NCBI RefSeq assembly: GCF_055900595.2
Contig: NZ_CM148325.1
Direction: 5' to 3' (one strand)
DNA: 64,000 bases
The position numbers and the translations under genes are program-made. Positions 43,454 to 45,522 of this stretch are shown here, piece by piece. The notes below the pieces were generated by a model that saw only the letters and a program-made list of their open reading frames with translations, was not told where the DNA came from and ran no database searches. How positions within the stretch are numbered: the stretch's first letter is position 1; the number at the start of each line of letters is the position of its first letter.

Positions 43454-45522
<2,069 letters not shown>

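Follow-up and report, generated by a model that had tools for sequence, protein, structure and literature searches.

The window analysed here, a stretch of 64,000 nucleotides from contig NZ_CM148325.1 of NCBI RefSeq assembly GCF_055900595.2, carries the ompR-envZ operon of an Escherichia coli lineage in which the response regulator OmpR has histidine in place of arginine at residue 15 (R15H). The gene order at the locus is greB (minus strand), ompR (plus) and envZ (plus) (Table 1), and the boundaries of ompR agree with the RefSeq annotation of near-identical relatives, where locus positions 23455-24174 correspond to window positions 43454-44173. The assignment of the gene to OmpR, within the OmpR/PhoB subfamily, is beyond doubt with respect to domains, orthology, synteny and catalytic residues. 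Both domains, i.e. the N-terminal receiver (PF00072, Response_reg) and the C-terminal winged-helix domain (PF00486, Trans_reg_C), are recorded for the exact protein and for its cluster, and are visible in the AlphaFold2 (AF2) model; the phospho-acceptor D55 is intact in the translation, together with D11, D12, T83 and K105, with D11, D12, D55 and K105 being invariant columns of the alignment and T83 lying outside its invariant and near-invariant columns. Exact-sequence look-up gave identity to OMPR_ECOLI (UniRef name) at 238 of 239 residues, with R15H as the sole difference. The preliminary description of the locus had read codon 15 as CAC and given Arg for this position in K-12; the raw sequence and translation bear out the former and the OMPR_ECOLI protein bears out the latter, and in the alignment to reference OmpR sequences it is Arg15, not His, that the references carry.

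Table 1. Features at and around the ompR-envZ operon (window positions).
Feature	Positions	Strand	Remarks
ompR coding sequence	43454-44173	+	239 aa plus stop; ATG at 43454; from the open reading frame table and translation
ompR codon 15	43496-43498	+	CAC (His) in place of CGC (Arg); from raw sequence, translation and reference comparison
Second base of ompR codon 15	43497	+	G>A transition; A in the window, G in relatives and outgroup
envZ	44170-45522	+	Cognate kinase/phosphatase; 4-base overlap with the ompR stop
greB	42750-43226	-	Divergently transcribed neighbour; fixes the conserved greB-ompR-envZ synteny
greB-ompR intergenic region	43227-43453	+	ompR promoter and leader; same sequence as in R15 relatives
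Three-gene insertion, envZ-pckA interval	45683-48160		427-aa SMI1/KNR4 (SUKH-1) protein and two open reading frames without a Pfam match

R15H is a genuine, derived and very recent missense mutation in a natural E. coli lineage, the ompR-envZ operon of which is otherwise wild-type. Seven complete genomes match window positions 40000-47500 at a bit score fitting one mismatch, and in all five of the close complete genomes that were compared directly (from a dog in Korea and from human stool or human samples in Mali, the Gambia, India and Japan) position 43497 is G, giving CGC, and is the sole difference from the window within that interval. The outgroup 2013C-4282 (98.7% identity) also has G at this position; the A of the window is therefore derived. 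The nearest draft genome (L018, GCA_045883435.1), retrieved by looking for contigs that encode the BioH variant of the window, equals the window across 20,771 bases apart from 43497, where it has G, which places the mutation at the very tip of the tree. The EnvZ protein of the window is identical to that of an R15 relative (L011), and a compensatory change in the kinase was accordingly rejected, the window EnvZ being unchanged with respect to R15 relatives.

Among 5426 complete RefSeq E. coli genomes, no perfect match to an H15 63-mer was found in either ompR allele class (0 of 3675 and 0 of 1803 matched genomes). The queries were the H15 63-mer, its wild-type version and the H15 form for the second main class of ompR alleles in E. 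coli, given that a single H15 63-mer is blind to this class, in which three central mismatches break megablast seeding. Over its whole length the window differs from strain 100117 at 16 positions. Between positions 20000 and 64000 six single-nucleotide states are derived in the window, at 22279, 35056, 43497, 47517, 53264 and 62965, the changes being rtcB H159Y, bioH E27K, ompR R15H, R171C in a hypothetical protein, a synonymous change in hslR and hofQ G314A. Nonsynonymous changes account for five of the six, and G:C>A:T changes likewise for five; a young branch may explain this spectrum, or possibly a biased mutation process. The K27 state of bioH is common to many draft genomes (623 blocks).

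Residue 15 is strongly conserved. Arg15 is kept in 118 of 119 cluster representatives of OmpR orthologues, down to approximately 83% identity (Proteus, Xenorhabdus, Vibrio and others), and His15 is the normal state in no species representative among these clusters. The equivalent position is occupied by Glu in CpxR, Ser in Bacillus subtilis PhoP, Pro in YycF and Arg in BfmR; invariance in orthologues together with variability in paralogues is the pattern of a residue in contact with a partner rather than of a catalytic one. The ompR genes of the H15 loci described below (E. coli, Salmonella-type and other enterobacterial) differ at 74-106 of 720 nucleotides, yet encode an identical protein; OmpR is thus extraordinarily constrained, and few of its positions are truly neutral.

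No experimentally determined structure was found for the receiver domain of OmpR, the best PDB match being CpxR, and the placement of residue 15 therefore rests on the AF2 model, the mean predicted local distance difference test (pLDDT) score of which is 77.8, with values of approximately 87 at residues 11-20. In this model β1 comprises residues 6-10 and α1 residues 14-26, with residue 15 being the second of α1; the model thus puts it on the receiver helix predicted to form the surface that docks the DHp domain of EnvZ. According to the text of Capra et al. (2010, PMC2991266), the regulator residues that coevolve with the kinase map for the most part to a single face of α1 and to the β5-α5 loop, and swaps in α1 shift the kinase preference of OmpR; OmpR residue numbers are given in the figures of that paper alone, such that the presence of position 15 among the seven top coevolving residues is not confirmable from its text. 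The preliminary description had set the change right beside the acidic pocket (D11/D12) that coordinates Mg2+ for phosphorylation. Residue 15 does sit three positions after D12, but a mechanism involving the Mg2+ pocket is probably irrelevant, both because position 15 is not a conserved catalytic residue of receivers and because the defect published for the R15C variant concerns EnvZ-dependent dephosphorylation rather than metal binding.

R15H is a so far undescribed allele at a residue already known as a functional hot spot. An Arg15>Cys change, ompR107, represents the ompR3 class (OmpC+ OmpF-, with OmpC constitutive whatever the osmolarity) and is reported to be dephosphorylation-defective (Brosse et al. 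2016, PMC5175337, where the classical genetics of Slauch and Silhavy 1989 and Aiba et al. 1989 are summarised). The ompR107 protein shows wild-type-like binding of the ompF and ompC promoters in vitro, and in vivo R15C raises the ratio of phosphorylated OmpR (OmpR-P) to OmpR, as seen on Phos-tag gels, with repression of ompF and induction of the small RNA genes omrA and omrB (PMC5175337). Experimental evolution of E. coli under tetracycline brought R15S to frequencies of 0.97 and 0.67 in two populations, the highest dynamic resistance being found in isolates joining R15S with acrB mutations (PMC12086408). In Salmonella, R15 of OmpR is a minor site of arginine N-acetylglucosaminylation (GlcNAcylation) by SseK1, with R122 being the primary site, and the modification lowers ompF expression (PMC10239501). 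The proposal in the preliminary description that the variant could alter porin regulation thus has precedent in R15C (PMC5175337) and R15S (PMC12086408), in each of which Arg15 gives way to a residue other than His.

Several literature matches proved to be unrelated: the 'R15L' of silver-resistance papers belongs to cusS, not to ompR; the 'Arg15' match in PMC12366229 is Arg150 of LptE; and the 'R15' of the matches PMC10160972, PMC11004495, PMC13025041, PMC13293288 and PMC3033074 is absent from their main text.

R15C (ompR107) involves the same gene, the same residue and the same G:C>A:T transition class in codon CGC as R15H, but it introduces Cys rather than His and comes from a laboratory selection in K-12; R15H, in contrast, occurs in natural isolates. 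R15S affects the same residue and ties changes at codon 15 to reduced drug permeability; however, it requires a C>A transversion, arose in a laboratory strain and introduces a different amino acid. The phosphatase-defective EnvZ alleles envZ473 and envZ11 have the end state that we would predict here, i.e. high OmpR-P and repressed ompF, but their lesion is in the kinase rather than in the regulator. SseK1 modifies the same arginine, but is a Salmonella effector of the type III secretion system, and His is not a substrate for arginine glycosylation. We therefore group R15H with the ompR3-class alleles by position only, as a putative member in which Arg15 is changed, with His for Cys.

The abundance of R15H in public genomes was assessed by exact-sequence look-ups, with counts being of contigs carrying an OmpR with the one substitution named. 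At codon 15 the counts were 113 for R15H, 18 for R15S, 8 for R15C and 1 for R15G, with R15L and R15P at 0, such that R15H is approximately 14 times commoner than R15C, the two being G:C>A:T transitions alike. The 15 control Arg>His variants ranged from 1 to 51 with a median of 4 (R115H 51; R154H 25; R69H 18; R17H 16; R110H and R150H 8 each; R91H 5; R46H 4; R71H and R182H 3 each; R42H, R121H, R122H and R190H 2 each; R22H 1), and R15H ranks first among the 16. The assemblies with R15H amount to 219 index blocks. The presence of the variant in more than 100 assemblies implies that it is biologically viable.

The substitution has arisen repeatedly. Ten H15 loci were fetched, five of them Salmonella-type, two from E. 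coli (L003 and L005) and three from other genera; they are mutually divergent by at least 0.7% over 5 kb and hence represent at least 10 unrelated backgrounds, with the two E. coli loci belonging to lineages other than that of the window. The H15 codon is CAT or CAC depending on which Arg codon is used locally, an argument against a shared sequence-context hot spot. A Dcm or other sequence-context hot spot was likewise rejected, there being no CCWGG site and the Salmonella carriers having changed CGT>CAT in another context. With respect to the kinase, the EnvZ of L005 (locus positions 3717-5069) differs from the E. coli consensus by D263G, in or near the DHp domain, and by T446M, which could be a compensatory or co-selected change, while EnvZ is of consensus or lineage-typical sequence in the remaining H15 carriers that were examined, except at L010, a divergent locus from another genus.

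By analogy with R15C, we regard R15H as most likely a mild ompR3-like allele that is either tolerated or under transient selection. Loss of Arg15 would weaken the encounter of EnvZ and OmpR-P that is needed for EnvZ-stimulated dephosphorylation more than it would weaken phosphorylation; the steady-state level of OmpR-P would rise; ompF would be repressed, with ompC, omrA/B and other targets of high OmpR-P being kept on; and the permeability of the outer membrane for small hydrophilic drugs and bile would drop. We infer the direction and the size of the effects on OmpR-P and the porins from the precedent, and we regard the full chain, from R15H to lowered permeability, as evenly balanced between holding and failing. 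The effect of His, which keeps some polarity and charge, would probably be milder than that of Cys or Ser and carry a smaller cost, and such mildness could explain why R15H is the commonest codon 15 variant in natural isolates yet is fixed in no species.

Its confinement to tips, together with the lack of any species in which His15 is normal, fits a local and transient benefit. We tentatively put forward, as a possibility less likely than the mechanism itself, that R15H is a convergently selected low-permeability allele, recurring on terminal branches in E. coli, in Salmonella and among other enterobacteria, which would be transiently favoured by antibiotics, bile, phage or colicins via mild tuning of the phosphatase action of EnvZ and then be lost to its long-run cost. 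Selection, rather than tolerance, may thus lie behind its abundance. More speculatively still, R15H would also remove a site of arginine GlcNAcylation in Salmonella and in E. coli with NleB-type effectors.

A number of observations weigh against a selected, ompR3-like role. The searchable literature gave no mention of OmpR R15H. Clonal sampling inflates the contig counts, as is apparent for the R115H control (L019-L021), which is mainly one clone with a 451-aa EnvZ and source names of Klebsiella pneumoniae (R115 features in earlier work on OmpR mutants). Nor is recurrence peculiar to R15H, since the R154H control (L022-L029) is found on at least six E. coli backgrounds and is thus also of multiple origin; recurrence is accordingly no proof of selection, because with many public genomes every tolerated transition is expected to recur. 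It is the excess abundance of R15H alone, not its recurrence, that points towards selection or unusual tolerance. The nonsynonymous majority among the changes derived in the window is typical of a young branch as yet unpurged by selection, such that an adaptive explanation is unnecessary and a nonsynonymous change at the tip does not by itself imply adaptation. His is also chemically nearer to Arg than Cys or Ser are, so that the effect of R15H could be negligible, and a weakened interface with EnvZ could equally reduce phosphotransfer.

The foremost alternative is a neutral or slightly deleterious polymorphism at the tip, tolerated because His partly replaces Arg; R15H would then have no meaningful effect on porin regulation and be purged in time. 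We consider this a serious rival, albeit rather unlikely. The terminal-branch position, with L018 identical save for the one base over 20.8 kb, is as it would predict, as are the predominance of nonsynonymous and of G:C>A:T changes among the neighbouring derived positions, the recurrence of other Arg>His variants including R154H, and the lack of any species representative with His15 as its normal state. It does less well in accounting for the rank of R15H at the top of the 16 Arg>His variants, far above the control median, for the strong regulatory phenotypes published for other substitutions at Arg15, or for the invariance of the remainder of the protein across genera, which leaves few truly neutral positions.

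A partial loss of function, in which damaged docking of EnvZ slows phosphotransfer such that OmpR-P declines and with it OmpC or both porins, as for the null and hypomorphic ompR mutations that arise under carbapenem selection, is improbable. The role of α1 residues in governing phosphotransfer from EnvZ, as described in the text of Capra et al. (PMC2991266), is consistent with such an effect, and loss of ompR, envZ or ompF is repeatedly selected with carbapenemase plasmids (PMC13293288). However, R15C, the characterised substitution at this residue, raises OmpR-P, and, again according to the text of Capra et al. (PMC2991266), OmpR remains a robust target of EnvZ when three α1 residues are swapped to their RstA identity. 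That the A at 43497 is an artefact of sequencing, assembly or laboratory passage is very improbable: a single base unlike that of every close relative, in a gene pair in which mutations arise fast in culture under selection, might raise this suspicion, but the same substitution is present in more than 100 independent assemblies from several genera, and there is no homopolymer or repeat around the position.

The surroundings of the operon have features of their own. The yhgF-greB-ompR-envZ region (40000-47500) shares only approximately 97% identity with its counterpart in most E. coli, with 5418 of 5426 records falling in the 95-99% band, and the window ompR differs from those of the other E. 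coli H15 loci at 18-20 of 720 bases. Two bases before the ompR start (-2, position 43452) the window has G (AAAGAATG), whereas C (AAACAATG) is found in the fetched loci of other E. coli and of Salmonella-type and further enterobacterial backgrounds; this G is common to the R15 relatives and is thus a trait of the lineage. The three-gene arrangement between envZ and pckA is present in 18 of the 5426 complete RefSeq E. coli genomes; elsewhere in E. coli pckA directly follows envZ or, in some genomes, a pair of RelE and helix-turn-helix genes intervenes. Members of the SUKH family frequently serve as immunity proteins in polymorphic toxin systems. In view of its divergence, the yhgF-greB-ompR-envZ region may be a divergent or recombined allele that is carried along with the neighbouring insertion.

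Further from the operon, the glgP-glpD interval (13025-16153) contains two genes for PstS-like periplasmic binding proteins (PBP_like_2) of 502 and 330 aa, along with an open reading frame of 200 aa without a Pfam match; together these look like an accessory insertion. At position 60784, codon 10 of hofN is TGG (Trp) in the window, and TAG in the close relatives E200086, 100117 and E500002, in which hofN is annotated as a pseudogene; the intact form is also present in Z0117EC0005 and AST85.

OmpR sets the balance of OmpF and OmpC and hence the entry of β-lactams, tetracyclines, bile salts and colicins, and codon 15 is among the few sites at which one base change is known to lock the OmpF-off state. 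Were R15H neutral, it would simply be a rare polymorphism in a well-known gene. If it acts like R15C or R15S, the isolate from which the window derives is predicted to have reduced permeability, and R15H would be a candidate for inclusion in catalogues linking resistance genotype to phenotype, being present in at least 100 public assemblies from several genera; were it convergently selected as proposed, it would outnumber all other natural missense variants of a regulator that is otherwise invariant, and be so far unreported. R15H is real, rare and recurrent and, although unsurprising to a specialist, is potentially useful for the reading of permeability-related resistance in genomes.
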